Notes: generated by a model not told the origin, from the sequence alone. A stretch of DNA of 51,091 nucleotides from an uncultured Clostridia bacterium (GCA_946539175.1 CAMNHH010000001.1:1-51091), one strand, 5' to 3'. Positions 2,630 to 29,226 are shown, counted from the stretch's first letter. A program made the numbers and translations.

Positions 2630-2654
2630 ATATTGAATTCCTCATTGCTCAAGT

Positions 2655-2848: not shown

Positions 2849-2956
2849 TATGATGTAATTCATAGAATTCACACAATCGCGGCTCCCTTGCTTTCGCGCA
2901 GAAACAGGGTTCAGAGCGAACGAAGCATTCTTTTCCCATGGAGGTGCATTTCAATC

Positions 2957-3634
2957 ATGCCATCCGCGGTCAAATCGGAAGAGTATGATCTCCTCCATTT
3001 TTCTGAGAGAAGGCCGAAAATTTGTACAGAAAAGCTGGGCAGAATAGCTCCGAAGCCTGTCTACGAGAAGGTAAAACGTATTTTTGACCTTTGCTTCTCG
3101 CTTTTGCTTTTGGTCGTTCTGATCCTTCCGATGCTGATCATCGCCGTTATGATCCGGCTGGATTCTCCCGGCAATCCGATCTATCGGCAAACGCGCCTTG
3201 GCAAGAACCAGAAGCCGTTTACGATCTACAAATTCCGAACCATGCACCTCCTGGCTGAACAGGATGGTCCGCGCTGGGCAAAGCCCAACGACAGCAGAAG
3301 TACGAGACTTGGCCGGGCACTGCGGCATGCTCACCTGGATGAGCTTCCCCAGTTGATCAACATAATAGCCGGGCAGATGAGCTTTGTGGGACCAAGACCG
3401 GAGCGCCCCGAGTTTTATGACGTCTTCGATACGTATATCGACGGATTCCGCCAGCGTATGCTGGTGACGCCGGGACTCACCGGGCTGGCGCAGGTTCACG
3501 GCGGTTATGAACTGCTTCCGGAGGAAAAAATCATCTATGATTTGGAATACATCAAAAACAGATCGTTCAGTCAGGATCTGCACTGTATTTTCCTGACCTT
3601 TGGACTTTTGATCACACATAAAGGAGCAAGATAG
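2957..3634 (+). CDS. Undecaprenyl-phosphate sugar-phosphate transferase (small monotopic PGT, bacterial sugar transferase family)
   Basis: ORF 2888..3634 trimmed to ATG 2957 after GGAGGTG. Motifs KRIFDL, one TM helix, PGNPIYRQTRLGKNQKPFTIYKFRTM, DELPQL, MSFVGPRPERPEF. Confidence 0.9.
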   Translation: MPSAVKSEEYDLLHFSERRPKICTEKLGRIAPKPVYEKVKRIFDLCFSLLLLVVLILPMLIIAVMIRLDSPGNPIYRQTRLGKNQKPFTIYKFRTMHLLAEQDGPRWAKPNDSRSTRLGRALRHAHLDELPQLINIIAGQMSFVGPRPERPEFYDVFDTYIDGFRQRMLVTPGLTGLAQVHGGYELLPEEKIIYDLEYIKNRSFSQDLHCIFLTFGLLITHKGAR

Positions 3635-3637
3635 GCA

Positions 3638-4483
3638 ATGGTAACGGACTATTCGGTCCTGATGTCTGTTTATCAAAAAGAAGAGCCGTCCTTTTTCCAT
3701 GACGCAATCCAAAGCATCCTGCGGCAGACGATTCCACCGAAGCAAATCGTACTGGTTTGCGACGGCCCTTTGACCGACGGGCTGGAACAGGAGCTGGAGG
3801 CCCTGCAGGAGAATCAGAGGGATATCCTGCGGCTCGTTCGGCTGCCTGCCTGCGGCGGATTGGGCAGCGCACTGCAGAAGGGGCTGCAATCCTGCAGCTG
3901 TGAACTGGTGGCCCGTATGGATACGGATGATCTGGCTGTGCCGAACCGAATGGAGCTGCAGCTGGCCGAGCTGGACCGGGACCCGTCACTTTCCGTTCTC
4001 GGCGGGCAGATCACGGAATTCTGGATCTCTCCGGACCGAATCTCCGGGAGCAGAAGGGTACCCTGTGATAACGAGGCGATCAGAACCTTCGCTGCCAGTA
4101 GAAATCCAATGAACCACATGACGGTCATGTTCCGAAAAAGCGCTGTGCTTGCCGCCGGAAGCTACCGGTCGTTTGACCGTTTTGAGGACTATGATCTCTG
4201 GTCGCGAATGCTGGCCGGGGGAGCGCGTTTCCGGAATCTGGATCAGGTTCTGGTGTACGCCAGAGTTGCGCCGGATTCCTACAGAAGACGCGGCGGCATG
4301 GACTATTTCAGACAGAGCGTCCGTATGCAGAAGCAGCTTCGCGCCTGCGGGCTGCTCGGCCCTGCCGCTTACTGCCGCAATCTGGCAGTTCGCTTTGCAG
4401 GGACAGTTCTGCTGCCGAACCGGCTTCGGGGGCTGGTATATCAAAAGCATCTGCACAAAAAGCTTCCGTCAGAGGAATCCTGA
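3638..4483 (+). CDS. Glycosyltransferase family 2
   Basis: N-terminal YSVLMSVYQKEEPSFFHDAIQSILRQT and the acidic motif ARMDTDDLA. Lies 3 nt after the PGT stop. Confidence 0.88.
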   Translation: MVTDYSVLMSVYQKEEPSFFHDAIQSILRQTIPPKQIVLVCDGPLTDGLEQELEALQENQRDILRLVRLPACGGLGSALQKGLQSCSCELVARMDTDDLAVPNRMELQLAELDRDPSLSVLGGQITEFWISPDRISGSRRVPCDNEAIRTFAASRNPMNHMTVMFRKSAVLAAGSYRSFDRFEDYDLWSRMLAGGARFRNLDQVLVYARVAPDSYRRRGGMDYFRQSVRMQKQLRACGLLGPAAYCRNLAVRFAGTVLLPNRLRGLVYQKHLHKKLPSEES

Positions 4484-4484: not shown

Positions 4485-5357
4485 ATGGGCGGATTCATCC
4501 CAGACGAAAAGCTCCTGGCCCATCAGCGGGTGATGCTGGAGCTGCTGCGGCAGGCGGACGCGATCTGCCGTGCCCATAAAATTCCTTACGTTCTGTTCGC
4601 CGGGACCATGCTGGGCGCGGTCCGGCACCGGGGCTTTATTCCTTGGGACGACGATCTGGATCTGTTGTTTTTGCGGGAGGACTACGATCGTTTCCTCGCC
4701 GCTGCGGAAACGGAGCTGGACCCGGAGAAGTATTATCTGCAGAGGGAATTCAGTCCCCATTGGCCCATGCAAAGCTCCAAGCTGCGGAGAAATGATACCG
4801 CCTGCTTTGAGAAATATTATCCCCGGGACCCGGAAACCCACATGGGGATCTACATCGATCTGTTCCCCTGTGATAATCTGTCCGACAGCCCATTGATCGC
4901 GCGTCTTCAATTTCTGGCCTCCAAGATCGTGATCGCAAAGGCTCTGGACGCAAGAGGCTATTTGACCCGCAGCCCCGCCAAAAAGATCTTTCTTGCCGTT
5001 TCCCGCCTGATTCCCGGCAAGCCCCTGGTCCGCTTTGTGCAGCTGCGGAGCCGGACCGGTACAAGCTGCGTTCACGTTTTTTTTGGCGGCGCAAAGCGTT
5101 ACGGCAAGAGCGTGTTTCCCCGCTCCTGGCTGGAGCAGCGGACAGAGCTGCCCTTTGAGGGTGGGAGCTATCCTGTTTCCGCGCACTATGAGGCTTTCCT
5201 CCGGCTGCTGTACGGTAATTATCAGGAGATACCCGACGCGAACGCACGGGCGCAGAAGAATCACGCGTTTTTTGTGGATCCCGCCCATTCCTACCGGGCG
5301 TATCCAAATATCTATGACGGAGTCAAATTTGACGTGCTGACAAAGAGTATTCGCTGA
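4485..5357 (+). CDS. LicD-family phosphotransferase (copy 1)
   Basis: ORF 4149..5357 trimmed to ATG 4485, 1 nt after the GT2 stop. Motif FAGTMLGAVRHRGFIPWDDDLDL. Confidence 0.9.
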   Translation: MGGFIPDEKLLAHQRVMLELLRQADAICRAHKIPYVLFAGTMLGAVRHRGFIPWDDDLDLLFLREDYDRFLAAAETELDPEKYYLQREFSPHWPMQSSKLRRNDTACFEKYYPRDPETHMGIYIDLFPCDNLSDSPLIARLQFLASKIVIAKALDARGYLTRSPAKKIFLAVSRLIPGKPLVRFVQLRSRTGTSCVHVFFGGAKRYGKSVFPRSWLEQRTELPFEGGSYPVSAHYEAFLRLLYGNYQEIPDANARAQKNHAFFVDPAHSYRAYPNIYDGVKFDVLTKSIR

Positions 5358-5374: not shown

Positions 5375-5815
5375 ATGCGAAACAAGAAACTGCTCGTCGC
5401 GGTCTGTGGAATCGTACTGGCGCTGTTTCTGGGCTGTGGAAAAAACAGCCCGCAGCCAAGCCTGAGTCCAAGCCAGGATGATCGGGCGAATCACGCAATC
5501 AAAACTGCCTGCGGCGATCTGTACTTCCCGGAGGAATGGAACGACGCGGTCGCCGTCCGGGAACAGACCACCGAATTCGGCAGCAGCGTGGTGTTTGAAA
5601 CGGAGCTGGAGGGTGAAAAAATTATTCTTTTCACCTTGAACATAGGCGGGGGAGAAGGCGATGAGATCGGAAAGCTGACCGATCAAAACGGTCAGGTCCG
5701 CAGCGTCCGGATGGTGATCAGTGAGCTGCACCCGGAGGGTGTTGACGAGCAGAGCGCTAATCGCCTGTTTGCCATGCAGGAGGATATCAATTATCTGATC
5801 GATCATTTGAAATGA
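5375..5815 (+). CDS. Small lipoprotein, unknown function
   Basis: Signal peptide with lipobox LFLGC (MRNKKLLVAVCGIVLALFLGCGKN). AGGAGG upstream. TTG 5369 is an alternative start. Confidence 0.75.
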   Translation: MRNKKLLVAVCGIVLALFLGCGKNSPQPSLSPSQDDRANHAIKTACGDLYFPEEWNDAVAVREQTTEFGSSVVFETELEGEKIILFTLNIGGGEGDEIGKLTDQNGQVRSVRMVISELHPEGVDEQSANRLFAMQEDINYLIDHLK

Positions 5816-5863
5816 TTTAGGAGTATTTACAGTCCCATGTCACGAGGAAGGAGCGTAAATGCA

Positions 5864-8800
5864 ATGAGGAACATCCGATTCAGAAGAATTCTCGCAATTC
5901 TGCTGGTACTGTGCCTGTCTTTGGGCTACGGATCCCCCCTGGCCAGCGCCGCGGATCCGGCAGAAGAGAACAACGCATCCGCGCTTGAAGCGTTTCTTGA
6001 GAAGTTGGTCAGCCTGGAGCAGTACGCGGCGGATTACGCGGCGGCAAACCCGGACTGCGGCAGCGACGCCTTTGAACTGGTACTGAATTACTGCAGAACC
6101 GCCAAGGAGGATTATACCTCCAGCAATTGGTCCAGTCTCGCAGGTGAGGAAAACGAAGGCTTCCGGGACTACGTCGCTCAGCAGGACGAGGAAAATGGGA
6201 CCAGCGTAGGGGAGATCAAGACCTACTCCGCCACCGGAAAGGACTTTATTCCCGTGGCCAACGGGAACAAAATTGACCTGTTCCATATCTTCGGCACCAT
6301 GAATATCAGCTATTACTGGGGCAGCCGATATCCGGAGCTCTCCGCCCGTCCTTACGCCGATCTGGGCGGCTGGGCCGGAGATCTGGTGGATCTGCTGACC
6401 AAGTGTACGGACCTTTCCGGTACGGAAGACGAGATGATCCGGGAAGTCTATTGGAACCGCTTTGCCAACGACCTCGGGCCTGGGTCCTTTGACATCGACG
6501 ACGTCTACGGGGACTTTGACGCCTATTACTTCATGCAGACCGCCGGGGCCGGTCAGGGCTCTCTGAGCCAGATCATGCGGGAGTATTATACCCCTGAGCT
6601 TTCCATGAAGGATCGGGCAGTCTTCTTTACGGAGCATCGCTTCTCCGGGAATCTCAGCCGGGAAGCGCTGCGGGACGCGGTGAAGAGCGCCTATTCCGGC
6701 AATATCCTGCTGGCGGCCCTGGAAAGCAACGAGGGGCTGGAGAATGTGGACGCCCAACGGGAAGCCTGCGTGTACGCCTTTGCCGATTACCTGTACATGC
6801 TGGTCAACGGTCCGGCGTTTGAGACGGACGAGGCCGCGCTCAACGCGGGTCAGACCCTGGAGGAGACCCCTGTCAGCGGCAGCGCGGCGAGCCTTTACGG
6901 CGATCCGGTGGAAGGCAGCTTCAGCTGGAAGCAGCCGCAGACGGTCGTGGAGCAGAGTGGATACTATACTGCGGTTTTCACCCCTGCAGACAGCTTCCAC
7001 TTCGGCGAAACAGAGCTCTCCGTGCCTGTGATCGTAGACGGACAGCCCATTGACGAGCCGGATCCCGATCCCGACCCGGACCCAGAGCCGAATCCCGATC
7101 CCGAACCGGAGCCGGATCCCGTCCCGGATAACAGCTATTTCTCCATCTTCTATAATAATACTTCCGTCCTGGCGCCGGGCGTCCAGCAGAGAATCCTGCA
7201 TACCCGCACCAGAGACAACAAGCAGATGGTGATCTACGCCGCTACCATCGACGTCTCCCGGCAGGACGTAGCCCTGCAGGCCAATTACAACGAAAACGAT
7301 CCGACCACCATCCCTACGCTTTCTCCGGTATCTGATCAGATGAAGGCGGCCCAGGCCAAGCACACGGATCCCGCCGACCCGGAGCATTACGTGGAGAATT
7401 ATAACGTGGTGTTCGGCTCCAACGCGGACTTCTTCACCATGGCCAACGGCAAGCCCACCAGCGCCTTTGTGATGGAGGGCGTCGTCTACTCGGACGCCGC
7501 CACCAGCGGATCTGGCAGCAGCAACTACTTCTTCGCGATTCTGAAGGACGGCACCCCGATCATCAGCCGAAACAGCACCTGGAACACTTACCGCGACAAC
7601 TGCCAGGAGGCGGTTGGCGGCGGCGCGCTTCTGGTGGAAAACGGCGAGACCAAGGTTTCCTCTTCTTCGAATTATTACAACAGCCGGGCGCCTCGTACCT
7701 GCATCGGCATCACCGCGGACAACAAGGTCGTGGTCATGTGTATCGACGGCCGCCAGGAGCCCTGGTCCTGCGGCGCTTCCTCCCAGGAAATGGCGGCAGC
7801 CATGATATCTCTGGGCTGCGTCAAGGCCATGAACCTGGACGGCGGCGGCTCCACCACCTTCGTCTCCAAGCCGGAGGGAGAGGACGAGCTTCGGGTCATC
7901 AACAGGCCCTCTGACGGATATGAGCGCCGGGTCTCCACCAGCTTGATGGTGGTCTCTACCGCGCCGAATTCCAATGTTTTGGATCACGTCTCCCTGCAGC
8001 CGGAAAACGAATATCTGATGCCGGGCGCAAGTGTTTCCGTGTCTGAGATCGGCGTTAACGCGGCCGGCGGCTCTGCCGAGCTTCCGGCGGATCTTCAGAT
8101 CGTATTGGACAAGCCTGACTTTGGCAGCTTCCAGGACGGCTGCTTCACCGCAGGCAGCGAGACCGGGGACGTGGTCCTCAGCGCGATCAGCGGCGATGCC
8201 GTTTTGGGCTCTGTGACGCTGCACGTTGTGATCCCGGATGCCCTGGCCTTTGATACCAACGAGGTTTCCGCGATCTACGGACAGACTGTTGAGCTGCCTC
8301 TGGTGGGGTATTACAACGGAAACAAGATCGCAATGAATTTTGCTTCCGATCTGCTCATCTATGGCTTGATGAATCCGAACGCGGGCTCCATCACCGCGGC
8401 GGTGCTGACGGCGGCAGACGAATCCTGCGGCGTCCGGTCTACGGACATCGGCGCCGCTCTTGCGGCGGACAACTCCATCTACGCCCGGACCACGCTGTAT
8501 TTGTATCACGAGAACGAGGCGGTGTTCGATTTTAACCACGCCACCGCCGGAAGCCGGAAGCTTGCCTGGAACCGGGTCGTTTCCAATTCCGAGATGACCA
8601 GGGATGAAAATGGTACTCTGGATGTTTACAATCTCGTGGAGCCCGGTGTCCCCATGGAGATTTCCTATACCTTCGCCCTTGATATGAACGACCTGGAGAT
8701 CCCGGACAACATCGCCGAGGCTCTGCCTGTCGTGGCATCGTTCCTGGGCGTTGACGCATCTGAGCTTGGTGCCTGGCAGCTGCTGCTGGCACTGGCGGAA

Positions 8801-10600
8801 CGGGTCAGCCCGTTGACGACTGTCACGGTCAAGGTCTTCGTAGACCCCAGACTGGATCTGGATATCAGCGATATGCAGATCAACTGCGATTATTTTGAGC
8901 TGACCGATAAGGAATTCGACTCTGAAAGCTCTACGCTCACGCTGAAAGCCCACTGGATCAAGGTCTACGGCCCGATCCCGGCGGCCACCGCGAATCCACT
9001 GTGCATCGTTTCCGGTCTCAAGGCCCACGTAAAGCCCGGCGCCCAGTGGGATGCGAACGACCGCCTCACCATTACGAACAGCGGTGAAATCACCTATGAG
9101 GTGGGCGTCCGCAGCTCCCAGGCCTACAGTCTGGCCAGCGGCGCGCTGGGGAAGCAGTACGGTCTGTACCCCTATGATAATACCGCGAATCTGGAAGGCG
9201 ATAAGGGCGCCATGTTCGGCGGCAAGCACACTGAGTTTTCCGACAGCTTCATCCTCGACAGCACGGACTATGAGGGCTGGGTTACCACCGAAGACGGCAC
9301 GGTATTCTATTACGTCAACAATAAGAAGCTGACCGGATTGCAGAAGCTGCCCACGCCGGAAGGGGACAAGCAGCTATATTACGTCTTTGCCGAAAATGGC
9401 GTACTGCTGCGGAAATACACCGGCAAACTGGAGCTGGAGGACGGGCTGCACTACGTGGTGCTGGGCCAGGAGGTCACCCGTTGGTATGAGCTGGACGACG
9501 GGATCCACTACTTCGATCCCGCGACCGGCGTTTCCGTTACCGGTACGCAGACCATTGACGGCTTTACCTATCTCTTTGAGGATTACGTCCTTGTCCGAGG
9601 TGAGTTCCGCCAGTTGGATACCGGCGCCTGGCGTTATCGCTGGGCCGGTCAGTGGTATGCCAAGGGCTGGTTTGTTGTGGAAGGCAAGAAATACTTTGCC
9701 ATTCGCGGCGGCAATCTGCACACCGGCATCCAGAACGTGGAAAAGTTCGGTGAATCCGGCAATGAATCCGTCCGCTTCCATCTCTTTGACGATCACGGAG
9801 TCTGGCAGGAGAATGCCAACGGTCTGTATCTGAATCTTGACGGCAAGACTTACCTGGCGGAGAACGGCTTTATGGTCCAGTATCCCGGACTTGTTCAGAT
9901 CGACGGGGATTATTACTACTTCACTTCCAAGAATTACATGGTACAGGGTACGGATTACTGGGTCAGCAAGACCAACGGTCTGATGCCCTCGGCCCGATAC
10001 AGTTTCGCGGAGGACGGAAAAATGATTCTGCACACGGAGCCGGATCCCGAGCCTACCGAACCTTCTGAGCCCACGGAGCCGGATCCCACGGAACCGGATC
10101 CCACGGAGCCGGAACCTGAAGTTAAGAACGGCATCTACGCCGAGGACGGCAGCCTGTATTACTACAAGAACGGCGCCCGGTACTACGCCGGCCTGATCAT
10201 CATCGACGGAGATTATTACTACGTCCGCACCGGCGGTGAGGTAGTCCACGGCAAGCGCTACACCGCTTCCAAGACCAACGGTCTGCTGCCCATCAAGCAG
10301 TATCTTTTCGCCGACGACGGCAAGCTGATTCTGGATGAGACGCCTCCCACGCCTACGGAGCCCACGGAGCCGGATCCTGACGTAAAGAACGGCATCTACG
10401 CCGAGGACGGCAGCCTGTATTATTACAAGAACGGCGCCCGGTACTACGCGGGACTGATCATCATCGACGGAGATTATTACTACGTGCGTACCGGCGGCGA
10501 GGTGGTCCATGGCAAGCGCTACACTGTTTCCAAAAATAACGGCCTTCTGCCCATCAAGCAGTATCTCTTCGCCGACGACGGCAAGCTGATCCTGCCGTAA
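5864..10600 (+). CDS. Giant secreted protein (1578 aa) with a phosphodiester glycosidase (NAGPA-like) domain and cell-wall-binding repeats
   Basis: SPase-I signal peptide (ILAILLVLCLSLGYGSPLASA/AD). About 390 aa of unknown N-terminal domain, then a PD/PE linker. NAGPA-like block (GSNADFF, ALLVENGE, PRTCIGITADNKVVVMCIDGRQ, MNLDGGGSTTF). One Ig-like (Big_2-type) segment, about 340 aa unknown, then C-terminal YG/choline-binding-type repeats (DGSLYYYKNG, IDGDYYYV). ATG 5864 follows GGAAGGAG; ATG 5837 is an alternative start. Confidence 0.9.
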   Translation: MRNIRFRRILAILLVLCLSLGYGSPLASAADPAEENNASALEAFLEKLVSLEQYAADYAAANPDCGSDAFELVLNYCRTAKEDYTSSNWSSLAGEENEGFRDYVAQQDEENGTSVGEIKTYSATGKDFIPVANGNKIDLFHIFGTMNISYYWGSRYPELSARPYADLGGWAGDLVDLLTKCTDLSGTEDEMIREVYWNRFANDLGPGSFDIDDVYGDFDAYYFMQTAGAGQGSLSQIMREYYTPELSMKDRAVFFTEHRFSGNLSREALRDAVKSAYSGNILLAALESNEGLENVDAQREACVYAFADYLYMLVNGPAFETDEAALNAGQTLEETPVSGSAASLYGDPVEGSFSWKQPQTVVEQSGYYTAVFTPADSFHFGETELSVPVIVDGQPIDEPDPDPDPDPEPNPDPEPEPDPVPDNSYFSIFYNNTSVLAPGVQQRILHTRTRDNKQMVIYAATIDVSRQDVALQANYNENDPTTIPTLSPVSDQMKAAQAKHTDPADPEHYVENYNVVFGSNADFFTMANGKPTSAFVMEGVVYSDAATSGSGSSNYFFAILKDGTPIISRNSTWNTYRDNCQEAVGGGALLVENGETKVSSSSNYYNSRAPRTCIGITADNKVVVMCIDGRQEPWSCGASSQEMAAAMISLGCVKAMNLDGGGSTTFVSKPEGEDELRVINRPSDGYERRVSTSLMVVSTAPNSNVLDHVSLQPENEYLMPGASVSVSEIGVNAAGGSAELPADLQIVLDKPDFGSFQDGCFTAGSETGDVVLSAISGDAVLGSVTLHVVIPDALAFDTNEVSAIYGQTVELPLVGYYNGNKIAMNFASDLLIYGLMNPNAGSITAAVLTAADESCGVRSTDIGAALAADNSIYARTTLYLYHENEAVFDFNHATAGSRKLAWNRVVSNSEMTRDENGTLDVYNLVEPGVPMEISYTFALDMNDLEIPDNIAEALPVVASFLGVDASELGAWQLLLALAERVSPLTTVTVKVFVDPRLDLDISDMQINCDYFELTDKEFDSESSTLTLKAHWIKVYGPIPAATANPLCIVSGLKAHVKPGAQWDANDRLTITNSGEITYEVGVRSSQAYSLASGALGKQYGLYPYDNTANLEGDKGAMFGGKHTEFSDSFILDSTDYEGWVTTEDGTVFYYVNNKKLTGLQKLPTPEGDKQLYYVFAENGVLLRKYTGKLELEDGLHYVVLGQEVTRWYELDDGIHYFDPATGVSVTGTQTIDGFTYLFEDYVLVRGEFRQLDTGAWRYRWAGQWYAKGWFVVEGKKYFAIRGGNLHTGIQNVEKFGESGNESVRFHLFDDHGVWQENANGLYLNLDGKTYLAENGFMVQYPGLVQIDGDYYYFTSKNYMVQGTDYWVSKTNGLMPSARYSFAEDGKMILHTEPDPEPTEPSEPTEPDPTEPDPTEPEPEVKNGIYAEDGSLYYYKNGARYYAGLIIIDGDYYYVRTGGEVVHGKRYTASKTNGLLPIKQYLFADDGKLILDETPPTPTEPTEPDPDVKNGIYAEDGSLYYYKNGARYYAGLIIIDGDYYYVRTGGEVVHGKRYTVSKNNGLLPIKQYLFADDGKLILP
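7055..7129 (+). repeat. Low-complexity Pro-Asp/Pro-Glu linker coding repeat
   Basis: A run of (GAY/GAR CCN) codons encoding EPDPDPDPDPEPNPDPEPEPDPVPD. Similar PT/PE linkers occur at 10034-10120 and 10336-10381. Confidence 0.85.
10121..10597 (+). repeat. 261-bp in-frame tandem duplication (87-aa wall-binding module plus linker)
   Basis: The unit starting GTTAAGAACGGCATCTACGCCGAGGACGGCAGCCTG at 10121 recurs at 10382. About 216 nt align, with roughly 18 substitutions counted by eye. Confidence 0.9.
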
Positions 10601-10612
10601 AACCTCACGATA

Positions 10613-10638
10613 CCCGCCCGCGTTCAGACGCGGGCGGG
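10613..10638 (+). terminator. GC-rich hairpin after giant gene 1 (no U-tract)
   Basis: CCCGCCCGCG-TTCAGA-CGCGGGCGGG, a perfect 10-bp stem 13 nt after the stop. No T run follows, so it may be only a partial terminator or a stabiliser. Confidence 0.4.
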
Positions 10639-10689
10639 AGAGAACCCGGCTGCGGATACCCGTTCGGGGAAGGAGCGTGACAGCTTATC

Positions 10690-11370
10690 ATGGTATTGCA
10701 ATTTGTGAAGGAACACGTCCTTTGGTGGATCCTTTTGTTTGCGGCTGTCTTTACCTTCTATTGGCTGATGCAGTTCCGCAAACGCCTGCGGATGTCCTGG
10801 CAGGCGGCTCTGCCGCTCAGCCTCCTTCACGTCGTATTCGGCGTCGCCTGCGTTCGGGTCTTTGCCAGGCTTGAGGGAGCTGATGCGGGGGCCATGAGTA
10901 TTTTCGGCGCGGTATTCTTCATGCCGATCGGTTATTATCTTGGCGCAAAGCTCTTCAAACGGCAAACTGCGGAGATATTTGATATTTTCGCTGTACCGAT
11001 GATTTTCACACTGCTGTGTGCTCGGGTCAACTGCCTGTTTTCGGGCTGCTGTCTTGGTTTGCCAATCGGAAGCACCGGCCTGCGCTGGCCGACCCGGGAG
11101 GCGGAAATGCTGTTTTATCTGACGTTTCTGCTGGTTGAAGCGCCGAAGGTGCGAAAGGGAAAAACACGAGGCGAGGTCTATCCGCTTTATATGTTTGCAT
11201 ACGGCTTATTCCGATTTGTGGTAGAGTTCTTGCGTGTTTCCACTTCCACAAATCATCCGTTTCATCTGTCCCACGCGTGGGCAATTCTTTCCCTCGTCGT
11301 AGGACTGGCGATAGTCGTGTTCATAACAAAACAGGCCAAGCGCCTCCAACGCAAGGCCAGGAAAAACTGA
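10690..11370 (+). CDS. Prolipoprotein diacylglyceryl transferase (Lgt) family protein, short paralogue
   Basis: Polytopic membrane protein. Lgt-like blocks CARVNCLFSGCCLG, WPTREAEMLFY and YPLYMFAYGLFRFVVEFLR. At 226 aa it is shorter than canonical Lgt. Confidence 0.72.
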   Translation: MVLQFVKEHVLWWILLFAAVFTFYWLMQFRKRLRMSWQAALPLSLLHVVFGVACVRVFARLEGADAGAMSIFGAVFFMPIGYYLGAKLFKRQTAEIFDIFAVPMIFTLLCARVNCLFSGCCLGLPIGSTGLRWPTREAEMLFYLTFLLVEAPKVRKGKTRGEVYPLYMFAYGLFRFVVEFLRVSTSTNHPFHLSHAWAILSLVVGLAIVVFITKQAKRLQRKARKN

Positions 11371-11385
11371 AGAGGAGGAATCTAT

Positions 11386-14300
11386 ATGGTAAACAACCTG
11401 TCAAAGCGTTTCCTCGCGTGTCTGATGGCGATTTTGATCGTCGTCACGCTGCTACCCGGCACCGTTCTGGCTGCCAGCGTCAATACCGGCGTCTCCGGTC
11501 TGACGGCTGAAAGCAGCGGCAGCGCAAGCTGGAACAGCTCCGGCGGAACGGTCACCGGATCGGTGGAAGCAAGCAAAAGTTCTGGCTGCGCCGGAGATTC
11601 GTATACGCCCCAAACCGGCACGCTGACTTTCACCAACAGTTCGGGCGCTACCGCTCTTTTGAGCTTTGATTACGCCCTTGGCTTGAGCGGTGGCAGCGCC
11701 ACTGTAGATGGGTCTGCCGTCTCTGCTGGATCCGGTTTTGCCAAGAAGCTGGCGGCCGGGGACAATGTTGCGATTTCGATCACGTCTCCCAGTGGCGAGG
11801 GAACCACCAGCATTGTATTGAGTAATCTGGCTCTGACCCCCGAACAGAGCATTACTCTGACCTGCAAGGCTCCCAGTCACGGCAGCTACACTGTGGACGG
11901 CACGGCAATCACTGCGGATACCGCTCTCTCACGGTTGACCACCGACAGTGTTAACCTGGCTGCAACCCCTGCCAGTGGCTATAAGTTTTTGGGCTGGTAC
12001 AGTGAGACTGAGGAAATCTACTTCTCCATAACAGCTTCTCTGACCACCAGCTTCACCGGTAATAAGACAATCTACCCGGTATTTGTTTCCAGCAGCATCC
12101 CCGTGTTCCAGGTAGGCTCCAAGCTCTTTACGGATCTGAACGAGGCCATCAGCTATTCCCAGAGCAGCGGCATTGCAAAGATTGTGCTGGTTTCCAACGG
12201 CACCCTGCCTGCCGGGACCTACACCATTCCCAGCGGGAAGACGCTGTTGATTCCCTTCGACGACGCTTTTACTGTCTTTACCTCCACACCGGAGGTGGTC
12301 TACGGAGCGCACGAAAATCCCTCCGCTTTCCGGACACTGACCATGGCCAATGGCGCGAAGATTGTGGTGTCCAACGGCGCTGTACTCTCCGTGCCCTCCA
12401 AGCTCTCCGCCACAGGGACCGGCAGCGGCTCCTGGAACGGAACGCCAACCGGTAAGCACGGCAGAATCAGCATGAATGCCGGCAGCTCCATCGACGTACA
12501 GTCCGGCGGCAAGCTCTATGCCTACGGCTACATTTCCGGTTCCGGCAACGTCTACGCCCGGTCCGGCTCCGAGATCTGGGAGTGCTTCCAGATCCGCTGC
12601 TGGCGAGGCGGTACGGCCACCTCCGGCATGGCAGATAACACGCAGAAGGTTTTCCCCCTGAACCAGTATTACGTTCAGAATGTGGAAGCCCCTCTGACCT
12701 TCTATCCCGGCGCAACCGAGAAGGTATATACCGCTGTGAATATGAGCAGCAAGGCCTTTGCGGCCTCTGCTACCTTCATTGGTTCCGGAGGTATGTTCAC
12801 AATCAATGACGGCAGTGTCACCAAGCGCTTCACCGGTGCTTCTGATCGGTTGGAGCTGAACGTGGATGGCAATTTTTCTATCACACCCATGTCCTTGAAT
12901 ATTACCGGACTTCCTCTGATTGGTGACCTAAATCTGAATACTGCTGACTATGTTCTGCCCATCAACAGCAACATCACCATCAATGTGGATACCGGAAACA
13001 CTATAATCAGCCAGGATGTCGCTTTCTTCCCCGGCACAGAGATGAATATTGCCAATGGCGCCACAGTAGAGCTTACCAGTGGCCACAAGGCATATATCTA
13101 TGACCAGGATCAGTGGGGCGCATACGCAGCAGCCAGTCAACAACTGGTGCCCGTTGGGTATTCTACTGTAAACGGTACTACGGCCAAGCGGACAGTTAAT
13201 AGCCTTGTTGATGCAAAGATTGATATCAACGGAACTTTTGCTGCCTATGGTTCTGCGTATACCACCGAGAGTGGTGCTCAGATTATCAGTTCACAGGGTA
13301 CGGGTAAGTACATTTTGCAAAGCGCCCCTGGAACTGAGAGTAACACTTACCAAGCGACACAGGGTGGATCAGAAGGTAAGGAAATCACCTATGTCAGTAT
13401 CCCCATAACCGCTGCCAGGCTTCAGAACGCCGATGGGAGCTACTTTGAAACCGCGGGCAAGGCCGCCGGTACGGAAATTCCCTATTACGAGGGAGAGTGG
13501 GGCAAGGTGCCTCCCGCCGTGCAGAACGGCTATTATCTCGTGGGCAGCAGAAATGACTGGAATACCGACGCGCCGGACCAGAACCTGATGTTCCAGCTGA
13601 ATCAAGATTCCAACGAAAACGAGTACCAGCTGACCCTGGATCTGACCGAAACTGAAGAATTCAAGGTCGTAGGGTATGAGGACGGTGTTGTGACCTGGTA
13701 TCCCGGCGGCAGCAACTACGTCGTGGACGCCGCCCACGCCGGGGCAGGGAAGACCGTCTTCTTCCGGCCTGACGCCAACGGCGGCAGCGACTGGCACGAG
13801 CAGACCATCTTCGTGGCCAAAAACCGGTATACCATTACCTGGAAGAACGAGGACGGCTCCGTCATCGACACCACCACCGTAGAACACGGTGAAATCCCCA
13901 CCCATGCGGATCCTGTAAAGGAAAGCAGTGCGGAATTTCATTACAGCTTTGCCGGTTGGACGCCCGCTCCCGTGGCTGCCGTGGCCGACACGGAGTACAC
14001 CGCCACCTTTACCTCCGCCACGAGAACCTATCTGATCCGCTTCCTCAACGATGATGGAACCGTGCTGCAGAGTGACCAGGTGGCCTACGGCGTAACGCCT
14101 GCCTATACTGGCGAGACGCCTCAGAAGGCCTCCACTGCGCAGTACAGCTACGAATTCACCGGCTGGAGTCCCGAGGTTGCAGAAGTAACCGGCGATGCCG
14201 ACTACACAGCCACATATCGGGAGATTCTGAACACTTACGAAATCACCTTCAACAACTGGGACGGCACTGAGTTGTTCAGTTTCGAATTCCCCTACGACAC

Positions 14301-17300
14301 CATACCCACCTACGACGGCCCGACGCCTGAGAAGCCCGACGACGAGCGCTACAGCTACACCTTCGCCGGATGGGATCCCGAGCTCGCAGCAGTCACCGGT
14401 CCCGCAGTCTATACCGCCAAGTTCACCGCCGCCCCGCTGATCTCCGACGGTTATTATCTGGTGGGCAGCTTTAACGACTGGAAGGCGGAGAACGCCTACA
14501 AGTTCCAGCATCAGGATGGTAAGTACCTGTTGGAGAACATCGCGCTGGCAGTAAACGACGAAATGAAGGTTGTAGGGTTCCGGGATGGAGCCCCGTTCAA
14601 ATGGTTCCCCGATGGCTCCGGCAACAACTACGTGCTTCCTGAGGGCAGAGAGGGCCTGAAGACCGTCTTCTTCAGCCCTGAATATCTGGATGAGTACGCC
14701 GATTGCAACGGTTTCCTCTTTATCCCGCTGAACACCTTCACCGTCACCTGGAACGACGATCAGGGCAATGAGCTGAAGAAGGACGAGGACGTTCCCTATG
14801 GCACCATGCCCAGCTTTGGGGATCAGGATCCTGTGAAGGAGGCCACTGCCCAGTACACCTACACCTTCAGCGGCTGGTCCCCCGAGCTGGCTCCCGTCAC
14901 CAGCGACGTAACCTACACCGCCACCTTTGGGTCTCACGTCAGAAGCTATACCATTACCTTCCAGAATGAGGACGGCAGCTTCCTATGGGCAGGAGACTTT
15001 GAGTATGGGTCCATTCCTGAATACCATGGCGAGATCCCCGTCAAACAGGGCGACGCGGAGCATTCCTACACCTTCGCCGGTTGGGAGCCCAACGTCACCG
15101 AGGTTACCGGCCCTGCTACCTACAAAGCAGTCTACACCGAAGCCACCAACACCTACACCGTCACCTGGGTCAACTACAACGGCGACGTTCTGGAAAAAGA
15201 CGAGGATGTACCCTACGGCGCGACTCCCAGCTATGACGGCGATGAGCCCGAAAAGCCTGCGGACGCCGAGTTCACCTACAGCTTCATCGGCTGGACTCCG
15301 GAAGTTTCTACCGTCAAAGGCAACGTGACCTACATTGCTACTTTCGAGCCTCACACCAGAAGCTATACCATTACCTTCCAGAATGAGGACAGCAGCTTCC
15401 TATGGGCAGGAGACTTTGAGTATGGGTCCATTCCTGAATACCAGGGCGAGATCCCCGTCAAACAGGGCGACGCGGAGCATTCCTACACCTTCGCCGGCTG
15501 GACGCCTGCGATTGCTGCGGTCACCGGAGAGGCCACCTACACCGCCGTCTTTGCGGAGCACACCAACAGCTATCTCATCATCTTCAACAACTGGGATGGC
15601 ACCGAGCTGTACCGCACCACGGTAGAATACGGTCAGATTCCTGTGTACGCGGGTGACACTCCCGTGAAGCAGGGCAGCGCCCAGTACAGCTACACCTTCA
15701 AGGATTGGGATCCCACGCTGAATCCCGTCACCGGCGAAGCTGTCTATACCGCCACCTTCACCGAATCCGTGAACAGCTACCCCATCACCTGGGTCGTGGG
15801 CGAGGAAAGGGAAACTGTGGAGCTTGAGTATGGCACCATGCCCACCCATGCGGATCCCGACAAGGAGTCTGACGCCCAGTACAGCTACTCCTTCGTGGGT
15901 TGGGAGCCCGAGATTGTCCCGGTCACTGGCCCCGCCACCTACACCGCCGTTTTCAACAAAACTGTGAACAAGTACACCGTTACCTGGAGCATCAACGGCA
16001 ACGAGACCACCGAGGAATACGAGTACGGCGACACTCCGTCCTATAAGGGAGAGACCCCTGTCAAGGAAGGCAATGCCCAGTATTCCTACGAGTTCACCGG
16101 CTGGGATCCGGACATCCAGGAGGTAACCGGCAATATTACCTATACCGCTCAGTTCCGGGAATCCGTGAACAAGTACACCGTCACCTGGAGCATCAACGGC
16201 GAAGAGACCACAGAGGAATACGAGTTCGGCGCTGTGCCTAGCCATGAAAACCCGGCGAACTACGAGGACGAGAACGGCAGTTACAAATTCATCGGTTGGG
16301 ATCCTGAAATTGAGAGTGTCACCGGCGATGTCACTTACACCGCAAAGTTCCAGGCTTTCCTCCGCAACGGTTTCTACCTGATTGGTCTGCGCGGCTGGAA
16401 TTACGAGTCTTTGTCCGCAGATGACCGATTCGTCGTGAACCCCAATGCGGAGAACGAGTACATGATCAATGAGGTTCTGCTCAGCGAGGGGGATACCCTA
16501 AAAGTCGCCCGGGTGGAGTATGGCGAGATTACAGGCTGGTTCCCCGATGGAATGGACAATCATTACGTCGTTGACGCTGCTCACGCCGGATCGCATACCG
16601 TATTCTTCAATCCCGACGGTAAGAATGAATGGCAAGATTTTGGCGGTTACATCTTTATCGATACGTCTTTCTTCGTGGTGACCTGGAGCGTGGATGGCGT
16701 CGAAACTTACGAGACCTACGTCTACGGTCAGATGCCTGCGCATGATGTCCCCGTCAAGGCGGAAACGATGCTGGAAAGCTACGAATTTGCAGGCTGGGAG
16801 CCCGAGCTGACTGTCGTGACCGGCCCGGCGACCTATACCGCTCAATTCACTGCCGTTCCCAAGGCCGGCTGGATCGCCTGGGAAGGCCAGCGGTACTATA
16901 TCGCGGATGGTGCGCCTGTCAGGGGCGTGTATGAGATCGAGGACGAGTTCTACATCTTTGATCTGGAAACCGGCGCTTTCCGCAGCGACGCCAACGGCGT
17001 CACCGACGTCGGGGAGGACACTTATCTGGCTGAAAATGGCAAGGTCGTCAAGAATCCCGGCCTGGTCCGGATTCCCGAGACAGAAGAGTATTTCTACTTT
17101 GGCGAGGACAACAAGGCTCTGAAGAACCAGCGTACCTGGATTGATCGGACCAACGACCTGCTGCCTGTGTGGGCCTACACCTTTACCGAGACCGGAGCCA
17201 TCGAGCACGTGGACGTCACTTGGGAGGGGCTGCAGGAAGACGGCTATACCTACATCGACGGTATTCGCGTTTACCTGGGTCTGGTACAGGAAGCCGACGG

Positions 17301-18222
17301 CAGCTACCACTACTACAATTCAACTGGCCTGCATATCGTTGGCCGCAGATACTGGATCAGCAAGACCAACCCGGAAACCGTCAAAGATCCCAACGGCAAT
17401 CCCTTCCCCGAGGGCAATTACGAGTTTGACGAGCAGGGCCGCATGATTCTGCCCGGCGACCCGCAGGCCAAGAACGGCATCGTTGCCGAGGACGGCAGCC
17501 TGTATTATTACGTGGATAACGTCCGCAGCTATGCCGGTCTGATCCTGATTGACGGCGATTACTACTACGTCCGCTACGGCGGCGAGGTGGTCCACGGCAC
17601 CGATTACTGGGTCACCAAGAACAACGGTCTGCTGCCCTCTGCCCGCTATCAGTTTGCGGACGACGGCAAGCTCATTCTGGAGCAGCCCAAGAACGGCATC
17701 GTGGCCGAGGACGGCAGCCTGTTCTACTATGTGGACGGTGCCAGGAACTATGCCGGACTGATTGAGATTGACGGTGACTACTATTACGTCCGTCAGACCG
17801 GCGAGCTGGTCCACGGCACCGATTACTGGGTCACCAAGCATAACGACCTGGTTCCCGCAGGCCGCTACAGCTTCGATGAAGACGGCAAGATGATCCTCAC
17901 CGGCACCCCCCTGGATCCGGAGCCGCAGCCTGAGGTGAAGAACGGCGTTTACGAAGAGGACGGCGTCAAGTACTATTACGAAAACGGTGTAAAAAAGTAT
18001 GCCGGTCTGATCGTCCTGGAGGACCCCGCGAACCCCGGCAGCTACGCGTACTTCTACGTCACCAGTTCCTGCCAGCTCAAGACCAGCGGCGCGGAGGGCA
18101 GCTTCGTGAAGTACACCGCAAGCTATACCAACGGATTGCTTCCGGCCGCAAGGTATCAGTTTGACTACCTTGGCAGGATGTATGATCTGGATGGCAATCT
18201 GCTGACGCCTGCCGCACCCTGA
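11386..18222 (+). CDS. Giant secreted protein (2278 aa) with InlB-B-type repeats and cell-wall-binding repeats
   Basis: RBS GAGGAGGA. SPase-I signal peptide (ILIVVTLLPGTVLA/AS). About 700-aa G/S/T/N-rich N-terminal region, possibly beta-helical. Three GYYLVGSxNDW modules, 12 roughly 70-aa repeats ending Y-x-F-x-GW, and C-terminal choline-binding-type repeats. Confidence 0.9.
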   Translation: MVNNLSKRFLACLMAILIVVTLLPGTVLAASVNTGVSGLTAESSGSASWNSSGGTVTGSVEASKSSGCAGDSYTPQTGTLTFTNSSGATALLSFDYALGLSGGSATVDGSAVSAGSGFAKKLAAGDNVAISITSPSGEGTTSIVLSNLALTPEQSITLTCKAPSHGSYTVDGTAITADTALSRLTTDSVNLAATPASGYKFLGWYSETEEIYFSITASLTTSFTGNKTIYPVFVSSSIPVFQVGSKLFTDLNEAISYSQSSGIAKIVLVSNGTLPAGTYTIPSGKTLLIPFDDAFTVFTSTPEVVYGAHENPSAFRTLTMANGAKIVVSNGAVLSVPSKLSATGTGSGSWNGTPTGKHGRISMNAGSSIDVQSGGKLYAYGYISGSGNVYARSGSEIWECFQIRCWRGGTATSGMADNTQKVFPLNQYYVQNVEAPLTFYPGATEKVYTAVNMSSKAFAASATFIGSGGMFTINDGSVTKRFTGASDRLELNVDGNFSITPMSLNITGLPLIGDLNLNTADYVLPINSNITINVDTGNTIISQDVAFFPGTEMNIANGATVELTSGHKAYIYDQDQWGAYAAASQQLVPVGYSTVNGTTAKRTVNSLVDAKIDINGTFAAYGSAYTTESGAQIISSQGTGKYILQSAPGTESNTYQATQGGSEGKEITYVSIPITAARLQNADGSYFETAGKAAGTEIPYYEGEWGKVPPAVQNGYYLVGSRNDWNTDAPDQNLMFQLNQDSNENEYQLTLDLTETEEFKVVGYEDGVVTWYPGGSNYVVDAAHAGAGKTVFFRPDANGGSDWHEQTIFVAKNRYTITWKNEDGSVIDTTTVEHGEIPTHADPVKESSAEFHYSFAGWTPAPVAAVADTEYTATFTSATRTYLIRFLNDDGTVLQSDQVAYGVTPAYTGETPQKASTAQYSYEFTGWSPEVAEVTGDADYTATYREILNTYEITFNNWDGTELFSFEFPYDTIPTYDGPTPEKPDDERYSYTFAGWDPELAAVTGPAVYTAKFTAAPLISDGYYLVGSFNDWKAENAYKFQHQDGKYLLENIALAVNDEMKVVGFRDGAPFKWFPDGSGNNYVLPEGREGLKTVFFSPEYLDEYADCNGFLFIPLNTFTVTWNDDQGNELKKDEDVPYGTMPSFGDQDPVKEATAQYTYTFSGWSPELAPVTSDVTYTATFGSHVRSYTITFQNEDGSFLWAGDFEYGSIPEYHGEIPVKQGDAEHSYTFAGWEPNVTEVTGPATYKAVYTEATNTYTVTWVNYNGDVLEKDEDVPYGATPSYDGDEPEKPADAEFTYSFIGWTPEVSTVKGNVTYIATFEPHTRSYTITFQNEDSSFLWAGDFEYGSIPEYQGEIPVKQGDAEHSYTFAGWTPAIAAVTGEATYTAVFAEHTNSYLIIFNNWDGTELYRTTVEYGQIPVYAGDTPVKQGSAQYSYTFKDWDPTLNPVTGEAVYTATFTESVNSYPITWVVGEERETVELEYGTMPTHADPDKESDAQYSYSFVGWEPEIVPVTGPATYTAVFNKTVNKYTVTWSINGNETTEEYEYGDTPSYKGETPVKEGNAQYSYEFTGWDPDIQEVTGNITYTAQFRESVNKYTVTWSINGEETTEEYEFGAVPSHENPANYEDENGSYKFIGWDPEIESVTGDVTYTAKFQAFLRNGFYLIGLRGWNYESLSADDRFVVNPNAENEYMINEVLLSEGDTLKVARVEYGEITGWFPDGMDNHYVVDAAHAGSHTVFFNPDGKNEWQDFGGYIFIDTSFFVVTWSVDGVETYETYVYGQMPAHDVPVKAETMLESYEFAGWEPELTVVTGPATYTAQFTAVPKAGWIAWEGQRYYIADGAPVRGVYEIEDEFYIFDLETGAFRSDANGVTDVGEDTYLAENGKVVKNPGLVRIPETEEYFYFGEDNKALKNQRTWIDRTNDLLPVWAYTFTETGAIEHVDVTWEGLQEDGYTYIDGIRVYLGLVQEADGSYHYYNSTGLHIVGRRYWISKTNPETVKDPNGNPFPEGNYEFDEQGRMILPGDPQAKNGIVAEDGSLYYYVDNVRSYAGLILIDGDYYYVRYGGEVVHGTDYWVTKNNGLLPSARYQFADDGKLILEQPKNGIVAEDGSLFYYVDGARNYAGLIEIDGDYYYVRQTGELVHGTDYWVTKHNDLVPAGRYSFDEDGKMILTGTPLDPEPQPEVKNGVYEEDGVKYYYENGVKKYAGLIVLEDPANPGSYAYFYVTSSCQLKTSGAEGSFVKYTASYTNGLLPAARYQFDYLGRMYDLDGNLLTPAAP
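13828..16860 (+). repeat. Array of 12 coding repeats (~200-210 bp each, InlB B-repeat / Listeria-Bacteroides repeat-like) interrupted by two beta-sandwich-like modules
   Basis: Each unit reads Y-T-(I/V)-T-(W/F) ... G ... P ... Y-(S/T)-(Y/F)-x-F-x-G-W-x-P-E ... T-G ... Y-T-A-x-F. Repeat 5 (14941-15080) and repeat 7 (15358-15497) differ at only 2 of 140 nt. Confidence 0.85.
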
Positions 18223-18370: not shown

Positions 18371-19594
18371 ATGCGCGCAGCCTTTGTCAACGCGGTATGC
18401 GGCAGCGGCAGCACCGGTAAGATTGTAACCGGTCTGCTGCGTTCTTTGCGTGGGGCAGGGGACGATGGCCGCGTTTTTTTCGGCATCGGCAAAGCCCAGG
18501 ACATTGCCTTGGAGGACACGTGCCGCTTTGGCAGTACCGCGGATTATTACCTGCACAACGCCGTCTCCAGGCTGACGGATCACGCCGGTTTTTATTCCAC
18601 CGCCGCCACCCGTCGGATGATCAAAGCCATAGAAGCCTATCAGCCGGATCTGATCCATTTGCACAATCTGCACGGTTACTATCTCAACGTGGAAGAGCTG
18701 TTCCATTTCCTGTCCGGCTGCGGAAAACCGGTGCTTTGGACTCTGCACGACTGTTGGGCCTTCACCGGGCATTGCACGCACTTCAGCGCGGCAGGTTGTG
18801 AGCAGTGGAAAACCGGATGCCGCAGCTGTTCCCAGCTTTCACGTTATCCAAAATGCCTGCTGAGGGGAGACGTGGAGCGGAACTATGCCCGGAAGCGCAG
18901 CCTGTTCACCTCCGTGCCGGGCCTTACGCTGATCACGCCCTCTGTTTGGCTGGCCGGCATCGTTCGGCAGTCCTTTCTGGGAAAATTGGAGATCATCCCC
19001 ATTCCAAACGGGATCGACACGGAGCGGTTTTGCCCCGTCAAGAGCGACGTCAAGGAGCGATTGGGATTAACGGGCAAAAAGATGGCATTGGGCGTCGCTT
19101 CGGTCTGGAATGAACGAAAGGGTCTGCAGGATCTTCTGCGCTTGTCTGAACTGCTGCCGGATGATTGGCGTCTGGTTCTGGTAGGACTTACAAAGCAACA
19201 GCAGGCCTTGTTCCCGAAGCTGGTCGTCACCATGGAGCGGACCTCCTCCCAGGAGGCGCTTGCCCGGCTTTATTCCGCCGCTGACGTTTTCATCAACCCC
19301 AGCTATGAGGAAACCATGGGCATGACCACGGCGGAGGCCCTGGCCTGCGGTACGCCTGCTGTGGTCTATGATCGGACCGCGGTGCCGGAGCTGGTAGATG
19401 AAAGCTGCGGCGCAATCGTACCGGCAGGCGACGTGAAGGCCCTTTGCGCGGCGATCACCTCCATTTCATTGGATCGTAAAGCCGCACGCGCCAGAGGCCT
19501 GCGATATGCCCAATCCAAGCAGAACGAAGCACATCTTCGGCTCTACAGGCGTTTGGTACAGGCAAGTAAAAATGGATTGGAGGCTCCGCTATGA
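18371..19594 (+). CDS. Glycosyltransferase family 4 (GT-B)
   Basis: ORF 18338..19594 trimmed to ATG 18371 after AAGGAGA. Cys-rich HDCWAFTGHC...C..W..GC..C block, then a C-terminal GT1/GT4 core (SYEETMGMTTAEALACGTPAVV). Confidence 0.85.
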   Translation: MRAAFVNAVCGSGSTGKIVTGLLRSLRGAGDDGRVFFGIGKAQDIALEDTCRFGSTADYYLHNAVSRLTDHAGFYSTAATRRMIKAIEAYQPDLIHLHNLHGYYLNVEELFHFLSGCGKPVLWTLHDCWAFTGHCTHFSAAGCEQWKTGCRSCSQLSRYPKCLLRGDVERNYARKRSLFTSVPGLTLITPSVWLAGIVRQSFLGKLEIIPIPNGIDTERFCPVKSDVKERLGLTGKKMALGVASVWNERKGLQDLLRLSELLPDDWRLVLVGLTKQQQALFPKLVVTMERTSSQEALARLYSAADVFINPSYEETMGMTTAEALACGTPAVVYDRTAVPELVDESCGAIVPAGDVKALCAAITSISLDRKAARARGLRYAQSKQNEAHLRLYRRLVQASKNGLEAPL

Positions 19595-23104: not shown

Positions 23105-23109
23105 ATCCG

Positions 23110-25575: not shown

Positions 25576-25576
25576 T

Positions 25577-26872: not shown

Positions 26873-26887
26873 TTAAGAGAGGTTACT

Positions 26888-28528: not shown

Positions 28529-28529
28529 A

Positions 28530-29213: not shown

Positions 29214-29226
29214 TCCTCAAATGCCT

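Follow-up and report, generated by a model that had tools for sequence, protein, structure and literature searches.

A surface-protein block of two nested modules as a possible conserved core of envelope-glycan operons in gut Clostridia

We analysed a 51,091-nucleotide (nt) stretch of DNA from an uncultured Clostridia bacterium (GCA_946539175.1 CAMNHH010000001.1:1-51091), hereafter the window, and in it a block of four genes at positions 5375-18222 of the + strand that lies inside an envelope-glycan operon. From sequence comparison, we give an even chance to the reading that this block is a widely conserved, uncharacterised core of the envelope-glycan operons of gut Clostridia (Oscillospiraceae, Lachnospiraceae and relatives), made up of two nested modules. 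The two genes of module 1, which encode a short Lgt homologue and a giant protein with a beta-helix head, are linked to each other, and module 2, a small membrane-anchored protein and a giant protein with a NAGPA domain, is linked to LicD. We regard both giants as probable processing enzymes or functional heads and not as cargo. The genes concerned are the following.

4488..5357, + strand: LicD-family phosphotransferase LicD1 (PF04991, 122 bits)
5375..5815, + strand: small membrane-anchored protein, 146 amino acids (aa), with a lipobox-type signal
5837..10600, + strand: NAGPA giant, a secreted two-enzyme protein of 1587 aa (1578 aa from the in-frame ATG at 5864)
10690..11370, + strand: short Lgt homologue, 226 aa (PF01790)
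11386..18222, + strand: beta-helix/B-repeat giant, secreted, 2278 aa

About 75 related loci were compared, taken from neighbourhood look-ups and from 61 genome loci found with the Lgt alignment. Pieces of the window proteins were scored against six-frame open reading frames (ORFs), and the counts given here are for non-redundant loci. The short Lgt had 258 close homologues, nearly all of 215-240 aa, in metagenome-assembled genomes of Oscillospiraceae and other Clostridia, and an exhaustive search gave 85 cluster representatives at E<=1e-30. The order of the block recurred in loci whose Lgt was just 44-70% identical. Cultured candidate carriers include Flintibacter porci (L032), Brotocaccenecus cirricatena (L030), Pseudoflavonifractor sp. 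MSJ-30 (L047) and Fusibacillus kribbianus (L048). Two gene orders predominated: LicD, small protein, NAGPA giant, Lgt and beta-helix giant (type 1, as in the window), and phosphoglycosyl transferase (PGT), Wzz, CpsD, CpsB, glycosyltransferase (GT) of family GT2, LicD, small protein, hexapeptide transferase, Lgt, beta-helix giant and NAGPA giant (type 2).

The beta-helix giant directly followed the short Lgt in 46 of the 51 non-redundant short-Lgt genes with at least 3 kb of downstream sequence, and the two reading frames often overlapped; of the five exceptions, two then carried a divergent giant of the same kind. Of the 28 loci with LicD, 27 had the NAGPA giant, as against 0 of the 9 that lack LicD (Fisher p 8e-8). 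The small protein was present in 24 of 27 NAGPA loci and in 1 of 10 non-NAGPA loci (Fisher p 1.6e-5), and C-terminal repeats were carried by the beta-helix giant in 25 of 27 LicD loci and in 3 of 8 loci without LicD (Fisher p 0.003). An earlier note on this DNA had asked whether the block and the flanking glycan genes co-occur and co-vary. They do so as far as LicD, the NAGPA giant, the small protein and the repeats are concerned, which makes polymer-dependent docking plausible. The Lgt-giant pair also occurred outside glycan loci, with no LicD or glycan genes nearby (for example L016, L027, L061-L064 and L072), and the four genes are therefore not one self-contained unit as had been suggested.

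The coordinates, domain calls and flanking genes given earlier for four co-oriented genes between early and late glycan genes were borne out, and the gaps of 17, 48, 89 and 15 nt were correct. Insertion into the operon, described as "spliced in", was rejected in view of composition and synteny: the gene order recurs across families and the composition is unbroken, the guanine-plus-cytosine (GC) content of the four-gene block being equal to that of its flanks. In two loci the beta-helix head, B-repeats, TelC-like domain, NAGPA domain and wall-binding repeats were encoded by one ORF.

L020:10642-20382: fused ORF, 3247 aa
L047:10522-19551: fused ORF, more than 3010 aa

Because the head and the NAGPA enzyme are fused in these loci, the block was regarded as integral to the operon.

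On profile scores, the short Lgt is a member of the Lgt superfamily and not an equivalog. It reached 62.2 bits with PF01790 (cut-off 24.9), stayed below the cut-offs of the NCBIfam Lgt equivalogs (32.9 vs 118.9 and 37 vs 334 bits), and its family profile matched E. coli Lgt (PDB 5AZB) weakly. The catalytic or essential residues of E. coli Lgt are reportedly Y26, H103, R143, N146, E151, G154, Y235, R239 and E243 (Pailler 2012; Mao 2016). This set is incomplete in the short Lgt. In the family alignment the equivalents of R143, G154, Y235, R239 and E243, as well as that of R246, were invariant, and three were replaced (H103 by F, N146 by C and E151 by C), which creates an invariant N-C...G-C-C motif. 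The E. coli sequence used for this comparison agrees with the 5AZB alignment and the published numbering. The short Lgt thus shares the fold family of canonical Lgt (PF01790/TIGR00544) and keeps its phosphatidylglycerol-binding arginines and C-terminal signature, but it is about 60 residues shorter, lacks the periplasmic head domain (E. coli approximately aa 160-195) and has F/C/C at the three replaced positions. Its constant partner also differs from a canonical substrate: the beta-helix giant has a signal-peptidase-I signal with an AxA site and neither a lipobox nor a conserved cysteine in the signal peptide.

Two fusions were found, one of the short Lgt to a beta-helix head without the Cys-bearing domain (P0385) and one to B-repeats (P0368). 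In L070 (9773-20558), two tandem, distant Lgt-like genes (28% identity), head-less, with Lys at the R143 equivalent and with G-C...G-C-C kept, lie ahead of a secreted giant that exceeds 2969 aa, and the Lgt-giant association may therefore reach beyond the family studied here. Our literature searches found no described Lgt paralogue of this kind.

The partner of the short Lgt is composed of a head, a stalk and C-terminal repeats. The head and stalk were mapped as follows.

11476..13530, + strand: conserved head, 685 aa, with a beta-sandwich, a B-repeat and a right-handed beta-helix, and many invariant polar residues
11587..11589, + strand: codon of Cys68, in the motif S-S-G-C of the first head domain
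13828..16875, + strand: stalk of about 12 B-repeats of about 69 aa with three inserted modules of about 105 aa, with FxGW periodicity
approximately 13516-13830, 14407-14730 and 16348-16665, + strand: the inserted modules (GYYLVGS.NDW...), aa 711-815, 1008-1115 and 1655-1760 of the giant

The head family comprises at least 1495 proteins, whose C-terminal anchors vary among wall-binding repeats, dockerin and SLH. An AlphaFold2 (AF2) model of the head, built from a 51-sequence alignment, had a predicted local distance difference test (pLDDT) score of 93.4, and Foldseek searches of PDB and BFVD with it gave weak partial matches only (GH87 glucanase, antigen 43, CBM29 and B-repeat phage proteins). 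The signal peptides of the beta-helix giants have in common a KRFLS-type start and an AxA cleavage site and share no cysteine; a lipobox in them was rejected, as the cysteine of FLAC in the window is Ser or Thr in homologues. The stalk holds 12 FxGW motifs, mostly about 69 aa apart. Precomputed PF09479/PF18998 (Flg_new/Flg_new_2) matches are carried by homologues, and the first inserted module was rarely detected in them.

Cys68 is the sole conserved cysteine of the beta-helix giant. In the head model it lies in an exposed hairpin turn, about 38 residues into the mature protein. It was present in 52 of 52 distinct Lgt-adjacent giants and in 85 of 116 family members at large. Three Cys-bearing members picked regardless of Lgt all had Lgt directly upstream, together with LicD and a NAGPA giant, and one of these, from L079, has a dockerin in place of the repeats. 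Neither of two Cys-less members, which come from different clades, had an Lgt neighbour, and both lay in clusters with pilin-like N_methyl proteins. Cys-less relatives of the head, of about 1000 aa, were seen at L074:8001-11003, L075:8001-10949 and L076:4019-6967 after genes for pilin-like N_methyl proteins, PilM and prepilin peptidase, with Wzz/CpsD/CpsB, PqqD, ScmC and SLH genes near them. This suggests that, where Lgt is absent, a type IV pilus-like apparatus displays the head.

In module 1 a head-less short Lgt is directly followed by its Sec-exported beta-helix partner with the invariant cysteine. We propose that the short Lgt would transfer a phosphatidylglycerol-derived group, most simply diacylglycerol, to Cys68 or otherwise tether it, and that the N-terminal head would thereby be held to the membrane's outer face. 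It was considered unlikely that the short Lgt is instead a catalytically dead membrane partner, such as a receptor, a secretion or folding helper, or a disulfide tether acting through the invariant cysteines. The loss of the H103, N146 and E151 equivalents with the gain of three invariant cysteines at the former active site would fit such a role, as would the fusions to the beta-helix head or a B-repeat protein, and in mycobacteria an Lnt-like domain is a non-catalytic partner of Ppm1. However, neither the phosphate-binding and catalytic arginines nor the Y-x3-R-x3-E-x2-R signature vary within the family, a constancy that is hard to explain without binding of a lipid head group.

The NAGPA giant of module 2 carries two putative enzyme domains.

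5954..6820, + strand: TelC-like (Lipocone) N-terminal domain, with invariant D222/D226/D228
7400..7951, + strand: NAGPA/DUF2233 phosphodiester glycosidase domain (PF09992), aa 522-705
7838-7852, + strand: DGGGS motif, D668-G-G-G-S672, codons checked

The NAGPA domain scored 136.4 bits with PF09992 (cut-off 25) and matched bacterial DUF2233 (3OHG) at 1.5e-17 and vertebrate NAGPA (6PKU) at 1.7e-9 in PDB. The DGGGS motif is invariant and catalytic (2026 structural study, PMC13474241). The domain is predicted to be a sugar-1-phosphodiester hydrolase with an intact catalytic motif. The TelC-like domain had no Pfam match. A profile of the N-terminal approximately 290 residues, made from 24 homologues, matched 57 residues of TelC (5UKH) with E=0.014, unrelated proteins being matched just as weakly, and D222, D226 and D228 (D-x3-D-x-D) aligned with D-D-Y-K-A-D-L-D of TelC, so that the Asp and the second conserved Asp six residues downstream that mark the TelC active site (PMC12419801) are both in place. 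The NAGPA giants of related loci had a precomputed match to PF27189 'YkzU', a family that could, as a guess, be the counterpart of the TelC-like N-terminal domain.

The small protein starts with a lipobox-type signal, MRNKKLLVAVCGIVLALFLGC (lipobox LFLGC), and matched no family in Pfam or NCBIfam. About half of its homologues had a plain, Cys-free transmembrane anchor and the others a lipobox, so the small protein cannot be a conserved Lgt substrate. A short Lgt dedicated to the neighbouring lipoprotein was rejected on the same count, as the Lgt persists where the cysteine is missing. An AF2 model from seven sequences (pLDDT 70) showed an extracytoplasmic curved beta-sheet and a C-terminal helix; Foldseek gave no meaningful match, a weak negative with a model of just pLDDT 70, and a 27-sequence profile matched no PDB sequence. 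The idea that the small protein is a TipC-like immunity protein was left unsupported by any sequence or fold match.

The products of LicD-family enzymes are phosphodiesters, and the substrates of NAGPA enzymes are sugar-1-phosphodiesters. In module 2 the small membrane-anchored protein accompanies the TelC-like and NAGPA enzyme. We propose that this enzyme would act on the sugar-1-phosphate or phosphodiester bonds that PGT and LicD put in the polymer, and would uncover phosphate, trim the polymer or free it from the undecaprenyl carrier. From the sequences we infer such a cover/uncover or trimming relation between LicD and NAGPA. No licA/licC-type choline kinase or cytidylyltransferase and no donor-synthesis genes were found in the window or the listed loci, and their absence beside LicD fits a common nucleotide-sugar donor.

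The NAGPA giant, and perhaps the beta-helix giant too, could also be secreted weapons against the wall polymers or lipid-linked precursors of competitors, with the small protein as immunity protein and the locus as a variable hot spot. Cleavage of lipid II by the toxin TelC is proven, the small protein has a membrane anchor, evolves fast and tracks the NAGPA giant, and integrase genes lie beside several loci; a conflict role was also proposed for prok-TelC, NAGPA and wall-binding giants of spore-forming Bacillota by Burroughs et al. (PMC12419801). Nevertheless, such a conflict system appears improbable. It is at odds with the LicD link of 27/28 vs 0/9 and with the same-strand, tightly spaced position in the operon, and the catalytic core is conserved and not swapped. 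The signal peptides are ordinary Sec signals, no type VII secretion system/LXG or polymorphic-toxin features were seen, and the small protein is unlike TipC or any solved immunity protein in sequence and fold. Moreover, such a weapon would dock through repeats that co-vary with the LicD of its own producer. Because the LicD-NAGPA link is strict, action on the producer's own polymer is favoured over conflict.

As the earlier note had stated, both giants end in a common repeat of about 70 aa.

9815..10594, + strand: three wall-binding-type repeats of about 70 aa, NAGPA giant aa 1327-1586
16990..18186, + strand: five wall-binding-type repeats, beta-helix giant aa 1869-2267

A repeat profile built from the eight aligned window copies matched, among PDB sequences, the CROPs of TcsL (2.7e-9), TcdA and TcdB, and more weakly CbpF, LytA and the glucan-binding repeats of glucansucrases. 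By this comparison the repeats are members of the CROP/choline-binding beta-hairpin superfamily (PF01473, PF19127) of wall- or carbohydrate-binding repeats. The repeats are Tyr-rich, Trp occurs in some copies only (YW/TW) and off the expected choline-site positions, and the choline-type site of two Trp and a Tyr between hairpins is absent from them; a glycan is therefore a likelier ligand than choline. The families expected earlier were in part recovered by the Pfam scan, NAGPA at 136 bits and LGT at 62 bits, but Flg_new_2, the InlB B-repeat profile, gave 21.6 bits on the window giant (cut-off 23.6) and Choline_bind_3 gave 18.3 on the repeats (cut-off 27), both below. Neither giant has LPXTG or SLH (PF00395), as had been noted, and by Pfam and motif check CWB2 (PF04122) is absent as well. 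The earlier view of binding to a wall polymer as the sole anchoring was not supported, since the anchor module is interchangeable, with dockerin in place of the repeats in L079.

Supported by the co-variation, we propose that the C-terminal repeats would dock both giants on the LicD-modified polymer, so that the enzymes would sit on their own substrate. In a simpler version, the giants are passive cargo, adhesins or fibrils, tied to the operon only by non-covalent docking of their repeats, and the Lgt serves the small lipoprotein. The superfamily of the repeats, their co-variation with LicD and the long B-repeat stalk, typical of adhesins, speak for passive cargo, to which we assign a low probability. 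It does not account for the intact NAGPA catalytic motif and the conserved TelC-like domain, for an Lgt that tracks the beta-helix giant and not the often Cys-less small protein, or for an Lgt-giant pair that exists without glycan genes, and a dockerin can replace the anchor module with the rest kept. With one giant a two-enzyme protein and the other bearing a conserved beta-helix head, a role as merely docked cargo was not supported. The idea of a polymer with docked proteins is retained in part, on the co-variation of the NAGPA giant and of the repeats with LicD and on the superfamily of the repeats; its cargo, insertion and single-unit readings are not.

Hairpins were found after both giant genes.

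10613..10638, + strand: hairpin after the NAGPA gene, 10-bp, GC-rich, no T tract
18262-18295 and 18307-18335, + strand: two strong hairpins after the beta-helix giant gene, with 15-bp and 13-bp stems, a possible attenuator or terminator

They could isolate the giants transcriptionally, as expected if unrelated surface-protein genes had come to lie inside a glycan operon by chance or hitch-hiking, but this is very improbable, as the arrangement recurs in dozens of loci of several families and includes gene fusions.

In its most novel form, the reading would be one of a second, non-canonical kind of bacterial protein lipidation outside the lipobox, in which a remodelled short Lgt would modify Cys68 of a folded giant already processed by signal peptidase I and so anchor a beta-helix/B-repeat fibre of 2000 residues to the membrane, beside a LicD/NAGPA cover/uncover pair that would edit phosphodiesters of the wall polymer. 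We offer this form tentatively and regard it as rather doubtful. Several points weigh against the main reading of a core with two nested modules. Directly before Cys68 there is often a T, M or L, which does not resemble a lipobox, and no hydrophobic segment adjoins the cysteine. Having lost residues important in E. coli Lgt, the short Lgt may catalyse something else or nothing. A lipidated N-terminal head fits oddly with C-terminal wall or dockerin anchors, and the modelled head has no convincing structural relative, so that it may be an enzyme or an adhesin. The fusion P0385 is a single database sequence, and cleavage at the signal-peptide-like segment that it keeps is still possible. The TelC assignment is weak, being based on E=0.014 and a motif. 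Every locus was found by way of Lgt or the beta-helix giant and not by way of LicD, the association counts ignore shared ancestry, and the hairpins allow partly independent transcription of the genes.

The remaining genes of the operon were annotated as follows.

1377..2267, + strand: LysR-type regulator (Pfam HTH_1 and LysR_substrate), a possible operon regulator
2888..3634, + strand: initiating PGT (Bac_transf, PF02397, 209 bits)
3638..4483, + strand: GT2 glycosyltransferase (PF00535)
18371..29952, + strand: late glycan genes (Pfam)
19591-20790, + strand: candidate polymerase (Wzy-like), multi-pass, 399 aa, no Pfam hit
23101-23943, + strand: late-glycan-gene protein of 280 aa, position kept in L001

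The late genes are, in sequence, GT4, Wzy-like, GT, acyltransferase_3, the 280-aa protein, GT1, hexapeptide acetyltransferase, Wzx, LicD2, Wzz, CpsD and CpsB, and their order was identical in L001. The 280-aa protein had no match in Pfam or NCBIfam. Pfam matches for PGT, flippase, Wzz/CpsC, CpsD kinase and CpsB phosphatase identify a Wzx/Wzy-type capsule pathway, and no LCP ligase was found by Pfam in the window. PGT lies upstream in related loci too, GT2 adjoins LicD in most of them and is its conserved partner, and in L071 a LysR gene holds the position equal to that in the window. Between the LysR gene and PGT, the AT-rich stretch at 2001-3000 has a GC content of 0.41-0.46 (approximately 0.56 elsewhere). 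It contains a perfect palindrome with a 20-bp stem (2510-2555) and the best promoter-like matches, and is likely to be the operon control region.

Directly after CpsB, at the operon end, a tandem DUF1508 protein is encoded at 30080-30448 (146 bits). A phosphofructokinase gene on the - strand follows (30509-31507), and the long + strand ORFs at 30500-31579 are its antisense shadows. Tyrosine recombinase genes at 31866-32978 (+) and 40124-41014 (-) enclose a segment with a RadA/KaiC-like ATPase, amidase_3, Mn catalase and a CapD-like UDP-sugar dehydratase (37448-39316, -). Integrases were also seen beside the glycan locus in L006, L073 and L077, and the glycan locus may adjoin a recombination hot spot.

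A polymer with docked, nearby-encoded proteins is an established concept, and TelC-NAGPA giants have already been described computationally. In C. difficile, the polysaccharide II (PSII) polymer is the non-covalent docking site of the CWB2-anchored Cwp proteins (Willing et al. 2015, PMC4973711; locus PMC5065235). As in our proposal, a wall glycopolymer docks surface proteins with tandem wall-binding repeats there, but these are CWB2 and not CROP/choline-type hairpins, and an Lgt homologue, a NAGPA/TelC enzyme and a LicD link are missing; the window proteins, in contrast, are embedded in the operon and appear to be enzymes. The genes for PSII and for surface proteins are chromosomal neighbours. 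SLH proteins, for their part, dock on pyruvylated polymers. In the phosphocholine teichoic acid of pneumococcus (LicD1/LicD2), a phosphodiester substituent installed by LicD on a Wzx/Wzy polymer is the ligand of the same repeat superfamily, and the choline-binding protein Pce is a phosphodiesterase acting on that substituent. The window differs in having no choline uptake or activation genes, in repeats without the typical choline-site tryptophans, in a NAGPA glycosidase instead of a phosphocholine esterase, and in its operon-embedded giants. In the lysosome, NAGPA acts after GlcNAc-1-phosphotransferase, so that a transferase building a sugar phosphodiester is likewise paired with a DGGGS glycosidase that is able to remove the cover sugar; the transferase of the window is of the LicD family and not Stealth/GNPTAB, and its cover/uncover logic is putative. 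The prok-TelC and NAGPA giants of Burroughs, Nicastro and Aravind (2025, PMC12419801), with TelC-like and NAGPA domains and variable wall-binding hairpin repeats, apparently belong to the same family as the 1587-aa protein. That work reads them as conflict effectors, and its passages found by our term searches make no mention of a LicD/glycan-operon context, a small partner or an Lgt-giant pair. Our literature searches did not find a description of the LicD-plus-repeat-protein arrangement in Clostridia, of a constant pairing between a remodelled Lgt and a beta-helix giant that bears the cysteine, or of a strict LicD-NAGPA linkage.

Among gut bacteria, Oscillospiraceae and Lachnospiraceae are dominant and little studied, and their surface chemistry shapes their interaction with the host. 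The block is found in many of their operons for envelope glycans, and their largest surface proteins are encoded in it. The comparative pattern points to three candidate enzyme-substrate pairs: the short Lgt with Cys68, LicD with NAGPA, and the C-terminal repeats with the LicD-modified polymer. If the first pairing is true, protein lipidation would extend beyond the lipobox rule, which would be categorically new. If the pairing of LicD with NAGPA is true, a physiological substrate would for the first time be assigned to a bacterial enzyme of the uncovering-enzyme family, and TelC-NAGPA giants could be read otherwise than as conflict effectors.

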